Numbered from the stretch's first letter, positions 8,835 to 44,933 are shown. The stretch: DNA of 44,933 nucleotides from a virus (IMGVR_UViG_2541047866_000012); one strand, 5' to 3'. Made by a program: numbers and translations. Notes: generated by a model not told the origin, from the letters alone.

Positions 8835-9095
8835 ATGCAATCACCATTACGGAATGTGCGTAAGGCGCACGGATTTACTTTGCAGCATGTTGCTGCTGGC
8901 GTTCAGGTCAATCCAGCGACGCTGAGTCGTATTGAAAGACTGGAACAAATTCCATCTATCGATCTTGCAGAACGTCTGGCCAATTTTTTTAAGGGTGAAA
9001 TCAGCGAAATGCAGATTCTTTATCCGGCACGTTTTCAATCTAGCCAAAACCAGAATGGGTTTAAACCACAGGAACAGGAGGTAAGCCGTGGGTAA
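8835..9095 (+). CDS. cro: Cro-like HTH regulator
   Basis: 86 aa; RBS GGAGG; HTH FTLQHVAAGVQVNPATLSRIE; first gene rightward from OR. Confidence 0.85.
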   Translation: MQSPLRNVRKAHGFTLQHVAAGVQVNPATLSRIERLEQIPSIDLAERLANFFKGEISEMQILYPARFQSSQNQNGFKPQEQEVSRG

Positions 9096-9639
9096 TCATC
9101 ACTGGAAAGTGGAAAAACAGCCTGAGTGGTACGTGAAAGCTGTCAGAAAAACTATCGCGGCGTTGCCGGGGGGTTACGCTGAAGCTGCTGAGTGGCTGGA
9201 TGTAACAGAGAACGCTTTATTCAACCGCCTTCGTGCAGATGGCGATCAGATTTTCCCGCTGGGATGGGCAATGATTTTACAGCGTGCTGCTGGCACTCAC
9301 TACATTGCGGATGCTGTCGCACAGTCTGCTGGTGGGGTGTTTGTATCGCTTCCTGAAATTGAGGAAGTAGAGAACGCAGATATAAACCAGCGCCTGCTGG
9401 AAGTCATCGAACAGATCGGGAGTTACTCAAAGCAGATTCGTTCGGCAATCGAAGATGGGGTAGTGGAGCCACACGAGCAGACAGCAATTAATGATGAATT
9501 GTATCTGTCAATTTCGAAGCTCCAGGAGCATGCGGCACTGGTCTACAAAATTTTCTGCGCTCCAGAAAAGAGTGACGCCCGCGAGTGTGCAGCTCCGGGC
9601 GTCGTGGCGTTTTGTGTCTGTGGAGAAACTAACGCATGA
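9088..9639 (+). CDS. CII-like early regulatory protein (186-type CII / CP76-like, tentative)
   Basis: 183 aa; GTG start with AGGAGG RBS; position after cro; family assignment from memory only. Confidence 0.55.
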   Translation: MGNHHWKVEKQPEWYVKAVRKTIAALPGGYAEAAEWLDVTENALFNRLRADGDQIFPLGWAMILQRAAGTHYIADAVAQSAGGVFVSLPEIEEVENADINQRLLEVIEQIGSYSKQIRSAIEDGVVEPHEQTAINDELYLSISKLQEHAALVYKIFCAPEKSDARECAAPGVVAFCVCGETNA

Positions 9640-10472
9640 ACAGTTTAACGGCAAATAACCGTTTGTCGCAACAGCTGGTGGTCAGTGTCGCTGCACACCT
9701 GTTGTTACGGCATGAATGCAGATTACCAAATCACCTGGCTGTAAGTAACCACAGAGAACTTTACCTGACTGTGGGGGGCGAGTTGTGCAGGAACTTAACC
9801 GCTGGTTTCGTGACGGAAGAGGACTTTATGTTCATGTTATTCGTTGGGAGCCAGAAACACAGCGCGTTATCTATCTTCGCAAAGACTACCCGCATGAGTG
9901 CTTTAGTCCTTTGTGGAAATTCAGGCGTGATTTTGTTGAGTGTGAAGGACCACCAGCACATTGATTCTGCCATTCCGGGACGTTACACTGTTCAGGCACC
10001 TTATAAAGCGGGTGCCGGGCGTGGCGCCCCGGAATTGCATACGGCGACAATTGGCGCGTTAGCGTCTTTTTTGTTGCTACAACTCAGCTATACCCAAATT
10101 ATGGTGGGCTGGGTGGGGGCACCGAAAGGTGCGCCGGTTTCCGTATGCGCCGGTTACGCCAACCCTGCTCAGTTCACCACCAGCGAAATTGGCGTTTCCG
10201 GTGGTGGAAGTTATCCATTGCATACGGAGGCTGCCATCATGGCTACTGTCCCAGCCCTCTCTCGTCTGAATGATGACGACTTACATAAACTCAGTTATGT
10301 AACAACTGCACTACGTGCTCTGCGCAAGGTAACTCTTTCGGATCCGCAGGCACATCAGGTTCTGGTAGAAACCCTTCTTAACTTGCAGGCTGAACGTATT
10401 CGTCTGGCGGATAAGGCTAATTTTCATATTCACCGTCTCCTTAATATCAGCGGAGGGCATCGTCATGCTTAA
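9636..10472 (+). CDS. Hypothetical protein (frame uncertain in 5' third)
   Basis: 278 aa; start and stop overlap neighbours; 3' half shows purine-first / pyrimidine-third codon bias; an alternative frame at 9785-9963 also reads protein-like. Confidence 0.5.
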   Translation: MNSLTANNRLSQQLVVSVAAHLLLRHECRLPNHLAVSNHRELYLTVGGELCRNLTAGFVTEEDFMFMLFVGSQKHSALSIFAKTTRMSALVLCGNSGVILLSVKDHQHIDSAIPGRYTVQAPYKAGAGRGAPELHTATIGALASFLLLQLSYTQIMVGWVGAPKGAPVSVCAGYANPAQFTTSEIGVSGGGSYPLHTEAAIMATVPALSRLNDDDLHKLSYVTTALRALRKVTLSDPQAHQVLVETLLNLQAERIRLADKANFHIHRLLNISGGHRHA

Positions 10473-10997: not shown

Positions 10998-11989
10998 GCC
11001 GTTACGCCCCCACACCGGAAGTTATGGCTATTGGTCAAATTAATATTTCCGGCAATGTTACACCTGCGACCTGGTGGAAATATATTCGACTACCCAGTGG
11101 GCGTCCGGATGCGACGGCTATCGCTCTGCTTTCAGAGATCGTTTACTGGTACCGCCCGACAGAGGTCAGGGATGAGCACACCGGAGCGTTGCTGGGATAT
11201 CGCAAGCGTTTTCAGGGCGACAAACTGCAAAGAAGCTACCAGGCGTTTGCTGAGCAGTTTGGTTTCGGGAAAAGGGAAACCGCAGATGCGCTGAAGCGTC
11301 TGCGCGATGCAGGGTTTATTACTCTGGATTTACGCACGGTGGAAATGCTCGATGGGGTGAAATGCAGCAATATTTTGTTTGTCGGGATCAACCCACAGGC
11401 AATTGCGGCCATCACCACACCTTCTTCTGTTTCGCCAGAAAGTAACAGCAATAATGCAATCAGCGATACAGCTATTACGTTAAAACGGAACACCCCCCGA
11501 CGTCATAACGGAACAGGGGATACGCCGAATGTTGATACAAATACAGAGATTACTACAGAGATTACTACAGAGATTACAACGGAGACTAAAAACACTATTG
11601 GCGCATCCGCTGACGCGTCTGCACCAGCGCGTTCTGCCAGACAGGAATATTCACCGGAATTTGAACAGGCCTGGCAGGAATATCCCAAACGTGCTGGTGG
11701 TAATTCAAAATCCGCCGCTTTTAAAGCCTGGAAAGCCCGAATCAGGGAAGGTGTGACACCCGAAACCATGCTCGACGGTGTGAAACGCTATGCCGCCTGG
11801 GTGCGTGTCTCTGGAAATACCGGTACCCAGTTCGTGAAGCAGGCGTCGACGTTCTTTGGTCCGGATCGTCATTTCGAAGAATCCTGGGAAGTTCCTGCAG
11901 TATCTGCAGCCAGACGCGAGGACCCGTACTTCAAAGCCAGTTACGACAACGTGGACTACAGCCAGATCCCGGCAGGATTCAGGGGGTGA
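10994..11989 (+). CDS. Replication initiator (O-like replisome organiser) with internal iterons
   Basis: 331 aa; N-terminal replisome-organiser-like region; internal EITTEITTEITTE encoded by 12-bp tandem repeats. Confidence 0.75.
   Translation: MSRYAPTPEVMAIGQINISGNVTPATWWKYIRLPSGRPDATAIALLSEIVYWYRPTEVRDEHTGALLGYRKRFQGDKLQRSYQAFAEQFGFGKRETADALKRLRDAGFITLDLRTVEMLDGVKCSNILFVGINPQAIAAITTPSSVSPESNSNNAISDTAITLKRNTPRRHNGTGDTPNVDTNTEITTEITTEITTETKNTIGASADASAPARSARQEYSPEFEQAWQEYPKRAGGNSKSAAFKAWKARIREGVTPETMLDGVKRYAAWVRVSGNTGTQFVKQASTFFGPDRHFEESWEVPAVSAARREDPYFKASYDNVDYSQIPAGFRG
11543..11587 (+). repeat. About 3.5 tandem copies of 12-bp unit ACAGAGATTACT inside the replication gene; candidate ori iterons
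   Basis: Repeats directly visible; lambda ori likewise lies inside gene O. Confidence 0.45.
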
Positions 11990-35224: not shown

Positions 35225-38200
35225 ATGGGTAAAGGCAGCAGTAAGGGACATACCCCGCGCGAAGCAAAGGACAATCTGAAGTCCACGCAGTTGCTGAGTG
35301 TGATCGATGCCATCAGCGAAGGGCCGATTGAAGGTCCGGTGGATGGATTAAAAAGCGTGCTGCTGAACAGTACGCCGGTGCTGGACAGTGAGGGGAATAC
35401 CAACATCTCCGGTGTCACGGTGGTGTTCCGGGCAGGTGAGCAGGAACAGACACCGCCGGAGGGATTTGAATCCTCCGGATCCGAGACGGTGCTGGGTACG
35501 GAAGTGAAATACGACACGCCGATCACCCGGACCATCACGTCTGCAAACATCGACCGTCTGCGCTTTACCTTCGGTGTGCAGGCACTGGTGGAAACCACCT
35601 CAAAGGGGGACCGGAATCCGTCGGAAGTCCGCCTGCTGGTTCAGATACAGCGTAATGGTGGCTGGGTGACGGAAAAAGACATCACCATTAAGGGCAAAAC
35701 CACCTCGCAGTATCTGGCCTCGGTGGTGGTGGATAACCTGCCGCCGCGCCCGTTTAATATCCGGATGCGCAGAATGACGCCGGACAGCACCACAGACCAG
35801 CTGCAGAACAAAACGCTCTGGTCGTCATACACCGAAATCATCGATGTGAAACAGTGCTACCCGAACACGGCACTGGTCGGCGTGCAGGTGGATTCGGAGC
35901 AGTTCGGCAGCCAGCAGGTGAGCCGTAATTATCATCTGCGCGGGCGTATTCTGCAGGTGCCGTCGAATTATAACCCGCAGACGCGGCAATACAGCGGTAT
36001 CTGGGACGGAACGTTTAAACCGGCATACAGCAACAACATGGCCTGGTGTCTGTGGGATATGCTGACCCATCCGCGCTACGGCATGGGGAAACGTCTTGGT
36101 GCGGCGGATGTGGATAAATGGGCGCTGTATGTCATCGGCCAGAATTGCGACCAGTCGGTGCCGGATGGCTTTGGTGGCACGGAGCCGCGCATCACCTGTA
36201 ACGCTTACCTGACCACGCAGCGTAAGGCGTGGGATGTTCTCAGCGATTTCTGCTCGGCGATGCGCTGTATGCCGGTATGGAACGGGCAGACGCTGACGTT
36301 CGTGCAGGACCGACCGTCGGATAAGGTGTGGACCTATAACCGCAGTAATGTGGTGATGCCGGATGATGGCGCGCCGTTCCGCTACAGCTTCAGCGCCCTG
36401 AAGGACCGCCATAATGCCGTTGAGGTGAACTGGATTGACCCGGATAACGGCTGGGAGACGGCGACAGAGCTTGTGGAGGACACGCAGGCCATTGCCCGTT
36501 ACGGTCGTAACGTCACGAAGATGGATGCCTTTGGCTGTACCAGTCGGGGGCAGGCACACCGCGCCGGGCTGTGGCTGATTAAAACGGAACTGCTGGAAAC
36601 GCAGACCGTGGATTTCAGCGTCGGCGCAGAAGGGCTTCGCCATGTACCGGGCGATGTTATTGAAATCTGTGATGATGACTATGCCGGTATCAGCACCGGT
36701 GGTCGTGTGCTGGCGGTGAACAGCCAGACCCGGAAGCTGACGCTCGACCGTGAAATCACGCTGCCATCCTCCGGTACCACGCTGATAAGCCTGGTTGACG
36801 GAAGTGGCAATCCGGTCAGCGTGGAGGTCCAGTCCGTCACCGACGGCGTGAAGGTGAAAGTGAGCCGGGTTCCTGACGGCGTTGCCGAGTACAGCGTGTG
36901 GGGGCTGAAGCTGCCGACGCTGCGCCAGCGCCTGTTCCGCTGTGTGAGTATCCGTGAGAACGATGACGGCACGTATGCCATCACTGCCGTGCAGCATGTA
37001 CCGGAAAAAGAGGCCATCGTGGATAACGGGGCGCACTTTGACGGCGACCAGAGCGGCACGGTGAATGGTGTCACGCCGCCAGCGGTGCAGCACCTGACTG
37101 CCGAAGTCACCGCAGACAGCGGGGAATATCAGGTGCTGGCGCGCTGGGACACGCCGAAGGTGGTGAAGGGGGTGAGCTTTATGCTTCGCCTGACCGTGGC
37201 AGCGGATGACGGCAGTGAGCGGCTGGTCAGCACGGCCCGGACGACGGAAACCACATACCGCTTCACGCAACTGGCGCTGGGGCGGTACACGCTGACAGTC
37301 CGGGCGGTAAATGCGTGGGGACAGCAGGGCGATCCGGCGTCGGTATCGTTCCGGATTGCCGCACCGGCAGCACCGTCGAGGATTGAGCTGACGCCGGGCT
37401 ATTTTCAGATAACCGCCACGCCGCATCTTGCCGTTTATGACCCGACGGTACAGTTTGAGTTCTGGTTCTCGGAAAAGCGGATTACCGATATCAGGCAGGT
37501 TGAAACCACAGCCCGCTATCTTGGTACGGCGCTGTACTGGATAGCCGCCAGTATCAATATCAAACCGGGCCATGATTATTACTTTTATATCCGCAGTGTG
37601 AACACCGTTGGCAAATCGGCATTCGTGGAGGCCGTCGGTCGGGCGAGCGATGATGCGGAAGGTTACCTGGATTTTTTCAAAGGCAAGATAACCGAATCCC
37701 ATCTCGGCAAGGAGCTGCTGGAAAAAGTCGAGCTGACGGAGGATAACGCCAGCAGACTGGAGGAGTTTTCGAAAGAGTGGAAGGACGCCAACGATAAATG
37801 GAATGCCATGTGGGGCGTCAAAATTGAGCAGACCAAAGACGGCAAACATTATGTCGCGGGGCTTGGCCTCAGCATGGAGGATACGGAGGAAGGCAAACTG
37901 AGCCAGTTCCTGGTTGCCGCTAACCGTATCGCGTTTATTGACCCGGCAAACGGGAATGAAACGCCGATGTTTGTGGCGCAGGGCAACCAGATATTCATGA
38001 ACGAAGTGTTCCTGAAGTATCTGACGGCTCCCACCATTACCAGCGGCGGTAATCCTCCGGCATTTTCCCTGACACCGGACGGGCGGCTGACGGCGAGAAA
38101 TGCTGATATCAGCGGTAACGTGAATGCGAACTCCGGGACGCTCAATAATGTCACGGTAAATGAAAACTGTACGATTAAGGGCATGCTGGAGGCGAACCAG

Positions 38201-38638
38201 GTCAGAGGTGACTTCGTTAAAACTGTATCCAAATCATTCCCGAAAAAGGCTGGTACGTGGGGTAACACGGAAACACCAAACGGGACGGTTACAGTCACCA
38301 TTTACGATGATCATAACTTTGACCGCCAAATCATTATTCCGCCCATTATTTTTAACGGTGTGGCGTATGACGATCCGGGGAGCGGTAATAACCCGGGAGG
38401 TACGCGATACACGGGTTATGGTTTTGAAGTTCGCAAAAATGGCGTATTAATCGCATCCAGAGAAACTAAAGGAGCCATTCCCGGTAGTTACAGTGCGGTT
38501 ATTGATATGCCGAGTGGTGGTGGTAACGTCACTCTGGAGTTTAAGATTTTCCAGAAAGGCAATCAGGGCGCAGGAAACATCACAGACTGTACGGTGATTG
38601 TGACCAAAAAAGCTGCTTCCGGTATCAGTATCCGTTGA
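35225..38638 (+). CDS. Tail tip / host specificity protein J, divergent C-terminal receptor-binding domain
   Basis: 1137 aa; first about 980 residues near-identical to recalled lambda J; last about 150 residues (from about nt 38180) differ. Confidence 0.96.
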
Positions 38639-38658
38639 AATATTTATAACCCCAATAC

Positions 38659-38684
38659 GGGCGCCAGCAATGGCGCCTTTTTTA
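38659..38684 (+). terminator. Intrinsic terminator after J
   Basis: Hairpin GGCGCC-AGCAAT-GGCGCC followed by TTTTTT. Confidence 0.65.
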
Positions 38685-42428: not shown

Positions 42429-42444
42429 ATTGGGTAGGATGAAA

Positions 42445-42738
42445 ATGGATATAACACCTTTCCTTCATGCGCTTTGTGCTGCGGCTGCGCAGCTATTGAT
42501 TGGTCTTTTTACCGGGAACTGGGCTTACGGGGCGATAGCCGGTTGTACGTTCTTCATTGCGCGCGAACATACCCAGGCAGAATATCGCTGGATTGAAATG
42601 TTCGGGCATGGCAAGCGTATGAATATGCCGTGGTGGGGCGGTTTTGATCCTCGTGCATGGGATGTGGCAAGCCTGATGGATTTTTCTGTGCCGGTGGTGG
42701 CGTGTCTGCTGGTCTGGCTGTTGGTTAATCGTGGGTGA
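42445..42738 (+). CDS. Hypothetical small membrane protein
   Basis: About 97 aa from ATG 42445 (AGGA RBS); hydrophobic N- and C-terminal segments. Confidence 0.5.
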   Translation: MDITPFLHALCAAAAQLLIGLFTGNWAYGAIAGCTFFIAREHTQAEYRWIEMFGHGKRMNMPWWGGFDPRAWDVASLMDFSVPVVACLLVWLLVNRG

Positions 42739-42748
42739 AAAAAGGTGA

Positions 42749-42876
42749 GCTGTATATGCAACGGAGGAAGAAACCTCGTTGCTGGAAGCCTGGAAGAAGT
42801 ATCGGGTGTTGCTGAATCGCGTTGATACATCAGTAGCACCGGATACTGAGTGGCCGGAAGAACCAGACACAATGTA
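42749..42876 (+). pseudogene. tfa: C-terminal remnant of tail fibre assembly gene (about 42 codons)
   Basis: Translates ...[39 protein letters not shown]-stop, the conserved Tfa C-terminus; in-frame TGA at 42746 and no start codon. Confidence 0.65.
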
Positions 42877-43041
42877 AGTGAAAAAGAAAAAACGCAGACA
42901 CGACGTATGCAGGACGTGCTGCGGTTGGCTGGTGAACTTTCGATAGTGCGAGTATTGAATGATTTCCAGCCGTTACTGATTTTACGCATTTCACGCGCAA
43001 GAGAAATTGAACTTTATCCCTCTGTCACCCCATGACGGGGA

Positions 43042-43800
43042 TTAACATTCTGGATTTTTTATTTCTAAATCAGATAAAGCATTAATTCTTATTTTTTCTA
43101 AGGCTTTATCCATGGCCCCCTTGATTCTGTATCCATAATCATCCGGTTCTTCATATTCCTGTGGGGACGGATTTGTACCAATATTCTCAATCAATTCATT
43201 TAAAATAACTGTTACTTCTTTATTAAGAAGAACTGCTTTAGTTAACATCATCTCTGTTAATGCTGTGAAGGCTAGGCTAAGTTTCTGTTGTAGCTCTTTA
43301 TTTTTTAATTTTAGATCTTCATCGTTTAGTGCTTTATCACGGTCTTCGTGAGCCTGTTGTACTTCATCCCAAAACTGCTTTTCTTGTTCTTGATTAAAAT
43401 ATCCTTGATAACTATTGGCTACATATGTTGGCATCATGTGAATCTCAATAATTTCAAATTCATTATCAGCCCATTTTTTTATACTAAGTAACTGTGTGTA
43501 AATGTACTCATACATATCGTACTTTTTTTGCCAGATTTGTTGAGAAATCCACAACTCAGAAGTAATCTTTTTTTCTATATCTTTGATAGTTGTTGTATTT
43601 AATGCTAACTGCTTTCTGAGTATTTCATAGTTAGCGTTGGTAGCAGAAATTTTTGCTTTTTCAGTTATAAAAGAAACAATAAAGTTCACTATGAGAGCTA
43701 CAATAATAATAGCGAAGCTCAACCCCAAAATCTCTGTGGTTGAGAAATTGGATGACTGTAATGCTTTGATAAGTTCAAAAAACTGTTTTTCTGTGAGCAT
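43042..43800 (-). CDS. AT-rich single-TM coiled-coil membrane protein, unknown function (cargo gene B)
   Basis: 252 aa; TAAGG RBS; TM helix about residues 24-45; Lys/Glu/Gln-rich coiled-coil-like remainder. Confidence 0.8.
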   Translation of the reverse strand: MLTEKQFFELIKALQSSNFSTTEILGLSFAIIIVALIVNFIVSFITEKAKISATNANYEILRKQLALNTTTIKDIEKKITSELWISQQIWQKKYDMYEYIYTQLLSIKKWADNEFEIIEIHMMPTYVANSYQGYFNQEQEKQFWDEVQQAHEDRDKALNDEDLKLKNKELQQKLSLAFTALTEMMLTKAVLLNKEVTVILNELIENIGTNPSPQEYEEPDDYGYRIKGAMDKALEKIRINALSDLEIKNPEC

Positions 43801-43872
43801 GGTGCCTTACCAAAAATTAAGACTGTTATCTATATAAAAATGTTACCCAAGAGGGATTGTAATGAAATAACA

Positions 43873-43892
43873 AACCGGCACATTGGCCGGTT
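43873..43892 (-). terminator. Hairpin between cargo genes A and B (possible attenuator)
   Basis: AACCGGC-ACATTG-GCCGGTT, followed on the minus strand by TTGTTATTTCATT. Confidence 0.45.
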
Positions 43893-43898
43893 TGAAGT

Positions 43899-44933
43899 TC
43901 AAGGAGGTGAGATTGTAGAGGCGTTACCTTGTTCTATCACACCAGACCTAATCTTGTAACTACCAAGGATGTTGACCGTTTTATTATTTTTCATCGCGTC
44001 AAAAATTAAGCCTATTTCATCAGGGTCATTGATAAAACTGGTATCAACATAGATCGGGAATGAATCATCACCTGTTGGCTCATGGCAGCTTAACGTTAGC
44101 TTATCGGCTGAGCGTTTTATACTATCAATGACAACTTCCAATGTTTGCTGCTCTGACTTAGCCTTTTCAATTGGGTTCTTGATGATTTCTTGAACCTGAC
44201 CTTGCGAAAGTTCAATATTGCTGGCCCCGCGGATCGTCACTTTGTCTGCATCAGATGCACCTTTAAGAACTCCAGTGTATGCCTTAGCGGTGTGCTCTTG
44301 GATACCTTCGGCGCGCTCTATCGTATCAATACCTTCATGTGCTTTTATTGCAGACAGCATACCATCGCGTAGAATTGTCATCCGCTCGGATTCTGCTCGC
44401 TGTTTTGCTTCTTCCTGTTGTAACTCAATAGTTTTGGTTTCGACTTGTGTCTGATGATCTAAGTAGGACGTACCGACCCATGCGCCGCCTAAAACTAAGA
44501 CAGCAAACAGGAAACACATTGTTTTCTGTCTTGGGCTCATACCTTGTGTTACCTTCTCAAATGCGTTACCAAAGGAATCAATAAGTTCTTTAACTGAGGT
44601 GATAATTTCTGTACAGCCAGGTTTGATAGTAAAAACCAACTCTGCAGCTTCTCTATCCTCAGCAGTGAGCTTCTGTAAGTTAGAGGTTTTGTACTTGATT
44701 AGAGTAAAAACCTTGTACATCTCAGTTTGAAATTCACAAATACCCTGTGCCAAACCTGCAGGCAGAGTACCATTATACTTATCTTCATCACCAAAAAATT
44801 TGAAATCAATACTTTCTAAGAAGTTTAACTTCAAATTTTCAATGTGGATTTCTTCGCCTGAAATAACTCGGTCGAAAATATTTCCTATATCATCAATATC
44901 ATTGATTTCATAGGTCTGAATTGCATCTTCCAT
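43899..44933 (-). CDS. AT-rich single-TM membrane protein, unknown function (cargo gene A)
   Basis: 344 aa; start ATG is the last three bases of the window; internal TM helix about residues 138-158 (TMCFLFAVLVLGGAWVGTSYL). Confidence 0.8.
   Translation of the reverse strand: MEDAIQTYEINDIDDIGNIFDRVISGEEIHIENLKLNFLESIDFKFFGDEDKYNGTLPAGLAQGICEFQTEMYKVFTLIKYKTSNLQKLTAEDREAAELVFTIKPGCTEIITSVKELIDSFGNAFEKVTQGMSPRQKTMCFLFAVLVLGGAWVGTSYLDHQTQVETKTIELQQEEAKQRAESERMTILRDGMLSAIKAHEGIDTIERAEGIQEHTAKAYTGVLKGASDADKVTIRGASNIELSQGQVQEIIKNPIEKAKSEQQTLEVVIDSIKRSADKLTLSCHEPTGDDSFPIYVDTSFINDPDEIGLIFDAMKNNKTVNILGSYKIRSGVIEQGNASTISPP

Follow-up and report, generated by a model that had tools for sequence, protein, structure and literature searches.

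The right end of a 44,933-nucleotide stretch of viral DNA (IMGVR_UViG_2541047866_000012; "the window" is this whole stretch) carries two minus-strand genes, called here A (344 amino acids, aa) and B (252 aa), which are placed between tail-fibre genes and a DinI-like gene (Table 1). The window is a lambdoid prophage, 99.4–99.9% identical to the prfC-adjacent prophage of Escherichia coli UTI89, and differs from it in two internal segments. At 38171–38680, the Ail/Lom-family gene found in UTI89 between J and the tail-fibre gene is missing, and the early-region segment 10037–11594 is unlike that of UTI89. The window ends with the ATG of A, and the promoter region of A is therefore off-window. In UTI89, a 446-bp spacer, the DinI-like gene, and prfC lie, in this order, beyond A. 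The right attachment site, attR, is about 1 kb beyond A, marked by a duplicated and diverged 5′ end of prfC (the displaced original is at the left end of the prophage), and both genes are therefore inside the prophage. A sequence-only reading of the window had proposed two minus-strand genes of these lengths between the tail fibres and attR, and their coordinates, strand, and lengths, as well as their position inside the prophage, are as proposed.

Table 1. Features at the right end of the window (positions counted from its first nucleotide)
Feature	Position	Strand	Remarks
Gene A	43899..44933	-	UTI89_C5141, Q1R273, WP_000389073.1 ("hypothetical protein" in RefSeq); member of phrog_6191
Gene B	43042..43800	-	UTI89_C5140, Q1R274, WP_000954672.1 ("hypothetical protein" in RefSeq); open reading frame, family alignment, AF2 model, transmembrane scores
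Terminator-like hairpin and T-rich tail	43861..43894	-	directly 3′ of the A stop; part of the gene-A module
Junction of the gene-A and gene-B modules	43846..43858	.	limits of DNA homology; coordinates converted from locus L001
3′ flank travelling with B	43000..43041	-	42 bp conserved in Klebsiella copies (blastn, L051/L052)

The G+C content is 31.8% in B and 40.2% in A, against 50.4% in the remaining window, and the G+C at third codon positions is 0.28 in B and 0.37 in A versus 0.67 in gene J. The value of 30–35% that had been estimated by eye for the pair applies to B and not to A; the wider suggestion that the pair is AT-rich prophage cargo of foreign origin, placed in a variable slot ahead of attR, is supported. 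Selection on the two genes is purifying (pN 0.10–0.36 vs. pS 0.48–0.85), with dN/dS of 0.09–0.14 where it can be computed, synonymous divergence being saturated. With this selection, and with dozens of cross-genus homologues for each, A and B are, on the sequence record, real genes. Searches of Pfam, NCBIfam, PADLOC, and PDB sequences give no match for either protein, and the literature contains nothing on WP_000954672.1 or WP_000389073.1, nor do the DefensePredictor supplements. The absence of a catalytic motif and of a family name, remarked on earlier, thus holds, with the addition that A matches phrog_6191, a group of no known function (E = 7e-93). Family, PDB profile, and fold searches likewise gave nothing specific.

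The same reading had grouped the two genes in a single cassette, and it is here that the data disagree with it. Forty-seven IMG/VR phage loci with a relative of A were collected. B adjoins A in six of these, all near-identical E. coli copies, and is absent from all 41 divergent loci (A identity 32–96%). B without A occurs in six genera (Serratia, Rahnella, Klebsiella, Citrobacter, Aeromonas, and Proteus). The A-less copies in Klebsiella and Citrobacter are at prophage ends; the Proteus copy is in a prophage, flanked by the Q gene and the lysis genes; and in Aeromonas B is a lone one-gene island between formate-dehydrogenase genes. A scan of genome contigs for gene B returned only two loci. Among 5426 complete E. 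coli genomes, the A–B pair is present in 28, all from one lineage (at least 91.6% identity across the block). A divergent A is found in five further genomes, and a divergent B in seven others, among those listed (8 divergent-A and 10 divergent-B records lay outside the listed ones); the listed copies of the two genes are in different genomes. The divergent A that was examined stands behind an S24 repressor, and the divergent B that was examined is at the right end of a prophage. The flank with the DinI-like gene is found in 3363 genomes, the A-proximal 200–340 bp in only 38. Adjacency across independent lineages, which an obligate two-gene operon would show, is thus not observed. Nor does the sequence suggest a single transcription unit free of an internal terminator, with a hairpin and a mosaic junction between the two genes.

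The hairpin (43894..43871 on the minus strand) has a stem of 9 bp with six G–C pairs and is followed by the tail TTATTTCATT; the fold of the intergenic RNA is at −23 kcal/mol (z = −2.5). It had been noticed before as a hairpin with a U-rich tail, and the description is accurate. In two loci with A only (L010 and L012), DNA homology covers the hairpin and ends just after it, in L012 at the equivalent of window position 43858. On the other side, homology with A-only loci starts at the start of A or as far as 348 bp upstream (−114 bp in L010), so that some 114–348 bp of A-specific upstream DNA moves together with A. Locus L011 is an exception, with homology ending 13 bp before the stop of A. The homology of the B module with the Klebsiella loci L051 and L052 (blastn) begins at 43846 and extends from 46 bp upstream of the B start to 42 bp past the B stop. 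With limits at 43858 and 43846, the two modules meet within about 12 bp.

Comparison of these sequences shows that A and B belong to unrelated families with separate distributions and that each has its own DNA module; their pairing came about by chance in the history of a single prophage lineage. Several features recall morons, foreign cargo genes complete in themselves. Base composition is deviant in both genes. Both are present or absent between conserved phage genes, as seen from the distribution of the flanks and from module-sized homology with unrelated loci. As for a terminator and promoter of their own, the hairpin is present for A. We give an even chance to the reading of the block as two independent single-gene morons joined end to end, each probably acting alone in exclusion or abortive infection.

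Off-window, in the DNA upstream of A (L001, 10965–11000), a palindrome GTGAT-TTAG-ATCAC can be seen by eye about 25–40 bp before the A start, and, farther upstream, a near-LexA-box CTG-N9-CAG (also by eye). A remnant of a repressor gene was looked for upstream of A in UTI89 and none was found.

The family of A is large. Searched with a profile, 1.84 billion representative proteins yield 778 clusters; among the 150 matches listed, most are 310–380 aa long and are aligned over most of their length. Pfam and PADLOC scans of 61 remote relatives reveal no recurrent family. Searches of the PDB with three profiles (A1, A2, and A3) give nothing specific, only look-alikes with a transmembrane (TM) helix plus stalk, among them ATP synthase subunit b and MotB. 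Homologues of A in GenBank (PV340541–PV340554) carry the label "T2SS GspM," and this was rejected, since neither GspM nor T2SSM appears in a Pfam scan with E up to 1 or in the 61 relatives. In GspM, the TM helix is near the N-terminus, unlike the central hydrophobic helix of A.

The genomic address of A is specific. In 31 of 38 informative loci, a co-oriented CI-type repressor gene is directly upstream of the A homologue (29 with a helix-turn-helix, HTH, plus Peptidase_S24, and two with HTH only). At least 11 clusters, with <50% identity between them, are represented among these repressors, and the gap between repressor and A is 12–130 bp in most loci and 211–431 bp in four. The cultured phages mEp332 and PhiR12_1 to PhiR12_5 have the same order, cI then A homologue, as does E. 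coli MDK9L1; in the annotated genome of PhiR12_2, the gene order is cI, A, N. From gene order, the usual position of the A family is shown to be the rexAB/bstA slot. That slot is a mosaic hot spot, highly transcribed, in which genes share the strong promoter of the repressor (PMC8585504). A second and rarer address, behind a DinI-like gene near attR, occurs in UTI89-type prophages and in L033/L034.

Some remote relatives of A are outside immunity regions: one has AbiEi_2 nearby, and another is in a corticovirus-like element. The latter (L069, 4001–5041; E = 1e-23) has the same N-domain motif and a hydrophobic helix. Its 8.7-kb element resembles corticoviruses, the A relative being just upstream of the gene for a PM2-type major capsid protein, with a rolling-circle Rep nearby. 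The A family therefore extends beyond tailed phages.

The AlphaFold model of A (pLDDT 83, pTM 0.74) contains an alpha/beta N-domain (1–127), a disordered linker (156–168), a helical hairpin (169–225), and an OB-fold (231–342). The C-terminal domain is modelled as a five-stranded beta-barrel superposable on known OB domains, an assignment of structural class only. In 30 homologues, the OB domain has a median pI of 5.2, a net charge of −3, and 3.5% aromatic residues. A nucleic-acid-binding OB-fold of the SSB/RPA kind was considered and rejected, the composition being at variance with a basic and aromatic surface; with an acidic and aromatic-poor domain, a protein or small-ligand partner is likelier than a nucleic acid. 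A hydrophobic helix is modelled within 134–158 (134–151 in helix, with a hydrophobic stretch at about 138–158). Its hydrophobicity is borderline (Kyte–Doolittle, KD, 1.82; Hessa-scale sum +0.9), and it is kept at the same position in the 61 relatives. Anchoring of A in the membrane is probable, not certain. The flanking charges favour N-in in 29 of 30 sequences, and an N-in, C-out orientation is favoured for the protein.

The family of B is small and compact. It has 56–58 clusters in 5.8 billion proteins, all hypothetical, of about 250 aa, and with at least 47% identity, from Enterobacterales and Aeromonas. A second profile search for distant relatives gave no new remote members, and the family is therefore closed at ≥47% identity. 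The G+C of B is 33–35% in every host, including an Aeromonas locus of 63% G+C. The TM helix at 24–45 is robust (KD 2.9; Hessa-scale sum −3.0). The AlphaFold2 model (pLDDT 80) is all helical, with one helix of 109 residues, and a domain of about 200 aa follows the TM helix. An invariant SELWxSQQxWQKKY (residues 81–94; family alignment A1) is C-terminal to the membrane helix, and the flanking charges, by the positive-inside rule, favour C-in in 28 of 30 sequences. B is thus most likely an inner-membrane protein, with a short N-tail outside and the helical domain in the cytoplasm. Of the two structural traits ascribed earlier to both proteins, one TM helix each and long coiled-coil-like parts, the first is right for B and borderline only for A, and the second suits the helical B and not A with its mixed domains. 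A fold search with B gives nothing specific, and PADLOC run on 30 relatives finds no recurrent family. Two candidate assignments were discarded: a HEPN nuclease (the helical domain lacks the Rx4-6H catalytic motif) and a spanin (phrog_739 is matched only at E = 0.9).

Of the six prophage-end contexts examined, five have B between tail-fibre or tail-tip genes and the end of the prophage. Its neighbours include RnlAB, the PADLOC candidates PDC-S39 and PDC-S15/FRG, a HEPN_Toprim_N protein, and a protein of 373 aa that has an RNDFIH motif. The last is conserved and comes after B in Serratia-type loci (L002, 9028–10149, and L075, 1989–3110; 90% identical); the motif is HEPN-like (Rx4H), there is no Pfam or PADLOC match, and the protein may be another defence candidate. 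In Klebsiella and Citrobacter prophages (L051–L058) and in one more IMG/VR contig (L077), a SRAP gene (YedK-like, PF02586) regularly follows B. In the L05x loci it is at about 8998–9743, and variable cargo (UmuDC, RnlAB, PDC-S39) follows before the tail-fibre genes. The order B, SRAP, variable cargo looks like a recurring arrangement of right-end cargo.

The genomic company of both families, as far as such analogy goes, is as expected for exclusion or defence genes expressed in the lysogen. An anti-phage role is plausible for A and for B. A would be made in the lysogen, co-transcribed with the repressor in the usual arrangement, and would by itself exclude phages, located in or close to the inner membrane. 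The weakly hydrophobic central helix would anchor it, possibly only conditionally. With the N-terminus in and the C-terminus out, the helical stalk would present the OB-fold, which would bind a protein or ligand of the DNA-delivery apparatus of the incoming phage and not nucleic acid. Within a defence role, the main alternative would be abortive infection of the Rex kind, with the marginal helix of A inserting only on activation. B may be a stand-alone membrane-anchored exclusion or abortive-infection factor, a suggestion made with low confidence.

The following points weigh against an exclusion role. The window copy of A is near attR and not behind a repressor, and its expression there is not established; a scan for sigma-70 consensus promoters upstream of A and of B found none. 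TMHMM predicts no TM helix in Q1R273 (PMC5404293, Table S6). In the A family, the Hessa-scale sum has medians of +1.6 and, in the wide family, +2.6, and it is ≤0 in only nine of 61 sequences. A pTM of 0.74 could mean that the helix packs inside a soluble fold, and the topology has the flanking charges as its sole basis. No sequence or fold link of A or B to a characterised defence protein was found, and the company of cargo regions, a guilt-by-association argument, carries little weight as evidence.

A different role for one or both genes, unlikely in our estimate, would be that of lysogenic-conversion factors acting on how the bacterium interacts with its animal host, for example by modulating the envelope or adhesion of uropathogenic E. 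coli (UPEC), and not against phages. The exact A and B proteins are common in E. coli (about 990 contigs each). A promoter-trap screen run on UTI89 within bladder cells scored fragments assigned to UTI89_C5140 (B) and UTI89_C5141 (A) as induced, and a 25% rise in adhesion and invasion was reported on deletion of "UTI89_C5139" next to them (PMC5404293). The UTI89_C5139 signal is up 2.3-fold in intracellular communities (PMC4959519). However, most of the entries in Table 5 of the screen come from one chromosomal neighbourhood (C5078–C5163, yjj, deo, osmY, slt, trpR), a pattern suggestive of a regional artefact, and we give the screen little weight because of this clustering. The two families occur also in Dickeya, Pantoea, Xenorhabdus, and Aeromonas, from plant- and insect-associated or aquatic settings, and this speaks against virulence towards a particular host as their role.

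The deletion, too, concerns other genes. "UTI89_C5139" (Q1R275) is a 154-aa open reading frame at 42525–42989 (−), antisense to the gene at 42430–42738 (+), which codes for a conserved membrane protein of phages (phrog_1443, E = 4e-58). The antisense frame matches no family and was dropped from the RefSeq annotation. From the knockout primers (PMC5404293), the deletion removed about 42544–42972, that is, most of the phrog_1443 gene and a tail-fibre-assembly remnant, and left A and B intact. To judge from the sequence, "UTI89_C5139" is probably a spurious open reading frame, an artefact of annotation.

In the same region, an Rfam scan returns a sub-threshold IS009 match alone, outside both A and B. 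It is at 42736–42834 (+), with the phrog_1443 gene on one side and the tail-fibre-assembly pseudogene on the other (64 bits vs. a gathering score of 117; E = 1e-13). The prophage is inserted in the 5′ end of prfC, and at its ends a 42-bp stretch of the start of prfC is present on both sides with 79% identity, the left copy being the displaced original and the right copy the phage-borne replacement. A 22-bp sequence, TGTACATATG(C/A)TTGTACATAAT, is also found near both ends and may be a site for a recombinase or a regulator. The end repeats are at 114–155 and 320–341 in the window and at 11821–11842 and 11879–11920 in L001.

It is improbable that A modulates the lysis–lysogeny switch or the induction of its own prophage without excluding other phages. 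The tight and repeated link of A to repressor genes of many immunity types would fit, as would the alternative position behind DinI-like genes, DinI being a RecA-filament binding protein; such a role was recently proposed for RexA/RexB, and according to a preprint RexAB helps in passing from lysogeny to lytic growth (10.1101/2021.04.19.439022). But the neighbouring repressors are unrelated, and a specific protein partner is therefore unlikely; the remote relatives near AbiEi_2 and in the corticovirus-like element are outside any immunity region; and no DNA-binding or repressor-binding feature is detected in A. Least probable of all, and very improbable, is a single two-component membrane defence system of A and B, transcribed and acting together like RexA/RexB: both genes point the same way with 98 bp between them, each has a hydrophobic helix, and they are adjacent in all 28 complete E. 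coli genomes with this copy, but these genomes are one lineage in which adjacency comes by descent, B is missing from every other A locus and A from every other B locus, the terminator-like hairpin and the mosaic junction separate them, and B stands alone in Aeromonas.

We return to exclusion by A and by B, each on its own. On a more tentative footing, and with rather less than an even chance of being right, A could represent a widespread and unrecognised single-gene exclusion system of immunity regions. It would be a counterpart of RexAB and BstA, with a conditional helix and an acidic OB-fold sensor, spread over at least 11 immunity types and present in non-lambdoid elements too, and B would be a further defence gene, unrelated to A, anchored in the membrane and acting by itself. 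With 778 clusters and no link to Pfam, PADLOC, or the PDB, the A family is a candidate for a new prophage-encoded exclusion mechanism. Because phages of E. coli K-12 in culture (mEp332 and PhiR12_1 to PhiR12_5) carry a homologue, A is directly testable. With the mis-grouping as a cassette corrected, A and B are to be considered gene by gene, and UTI89_C5139, described as a virulence-modulating gene of UPEC, is flagged as a probable artefact adjoining them.

Among known systems, the lambdoid morons (bor, lom, and HK97 gp15) share with A and B a deviant composition, a self-contained gene, insertion between conserved genes, and a patchy distribution, and with A a terminator-like hairpin of its own. 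They differ in belonging to other protein families, and promoters for A and B were not found by the scan. SNIPE, a nuclease bound to the membrane, cuts phage DNA during injection and meets the entering genome or the tape-measure protein (PMC13190303). The likeness is in the placing of a defence protein at the membrane to meet the entering phage, and the difference is in the nuclease domain: neither this nor any other catalytic domain is detected in A or B, and the acidic OB-fold of A is an unlikely DNA binder.

P22 SieA, HK97 gp15, and T4 Imm are small inner-membrane proteins, expressed from prophages, that block DNA entry, which is the mechanism favoured for A; in B, the membrane anchor with a soluble domain also recalls the SieA type. 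P22 SieA has 162–164 aa, three TM helices, and the motif FxRYPxEAxxFNK (PMC10883804). A, with 344 aa and at most one TM helix, and B, with 252 aa and one, depart from this plan and have no detectable sequence similarity to it.

The closest parallels are in the slot behind the repressor. BstA of prophage BTP1 is, like A, a single gene downstream of prophage repressors. BstA is a soluble, DNA-associated abortive-infection protein with a KilA-N-like domain. No sequence similarity between BstA and A is detected (no Pfam or PADLOC match), and A has instead an OB-fold and a hydrophobic helix. BstA occurs in diverse Gram-negative prophages, typically behind the repressor and with a Rho-independent terminator of its own (PMC8585504). 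RexA/RexB of phage lambda consist of a 279-aa protein and a 144-aa partner with four TM helices, whereas A is one protein with no more than a marginal TM helix. No significant PADLOC or Pfam match to RexA/RexB was obtained for A, B, or the 61 A relatives (with PADLOC, also for 30 B relatives), the presence of Rex models in PADLOC not being confirmed. RexA/RexB resemble A in that a hydrophobic element, which may be in the membrane, goes with a soluble domain distinct from it. They also share with the A family, though not with the window copy near attR, the slot downstream of and co-oriented with the CI repressor, as in the 31 loci and in phages mEp332 and PhiR12. The A family is thus a recurrent and uncharacterised occupant of the repressor-adjacent slot that has already yielded RexAB and BstA (PMC8585504).

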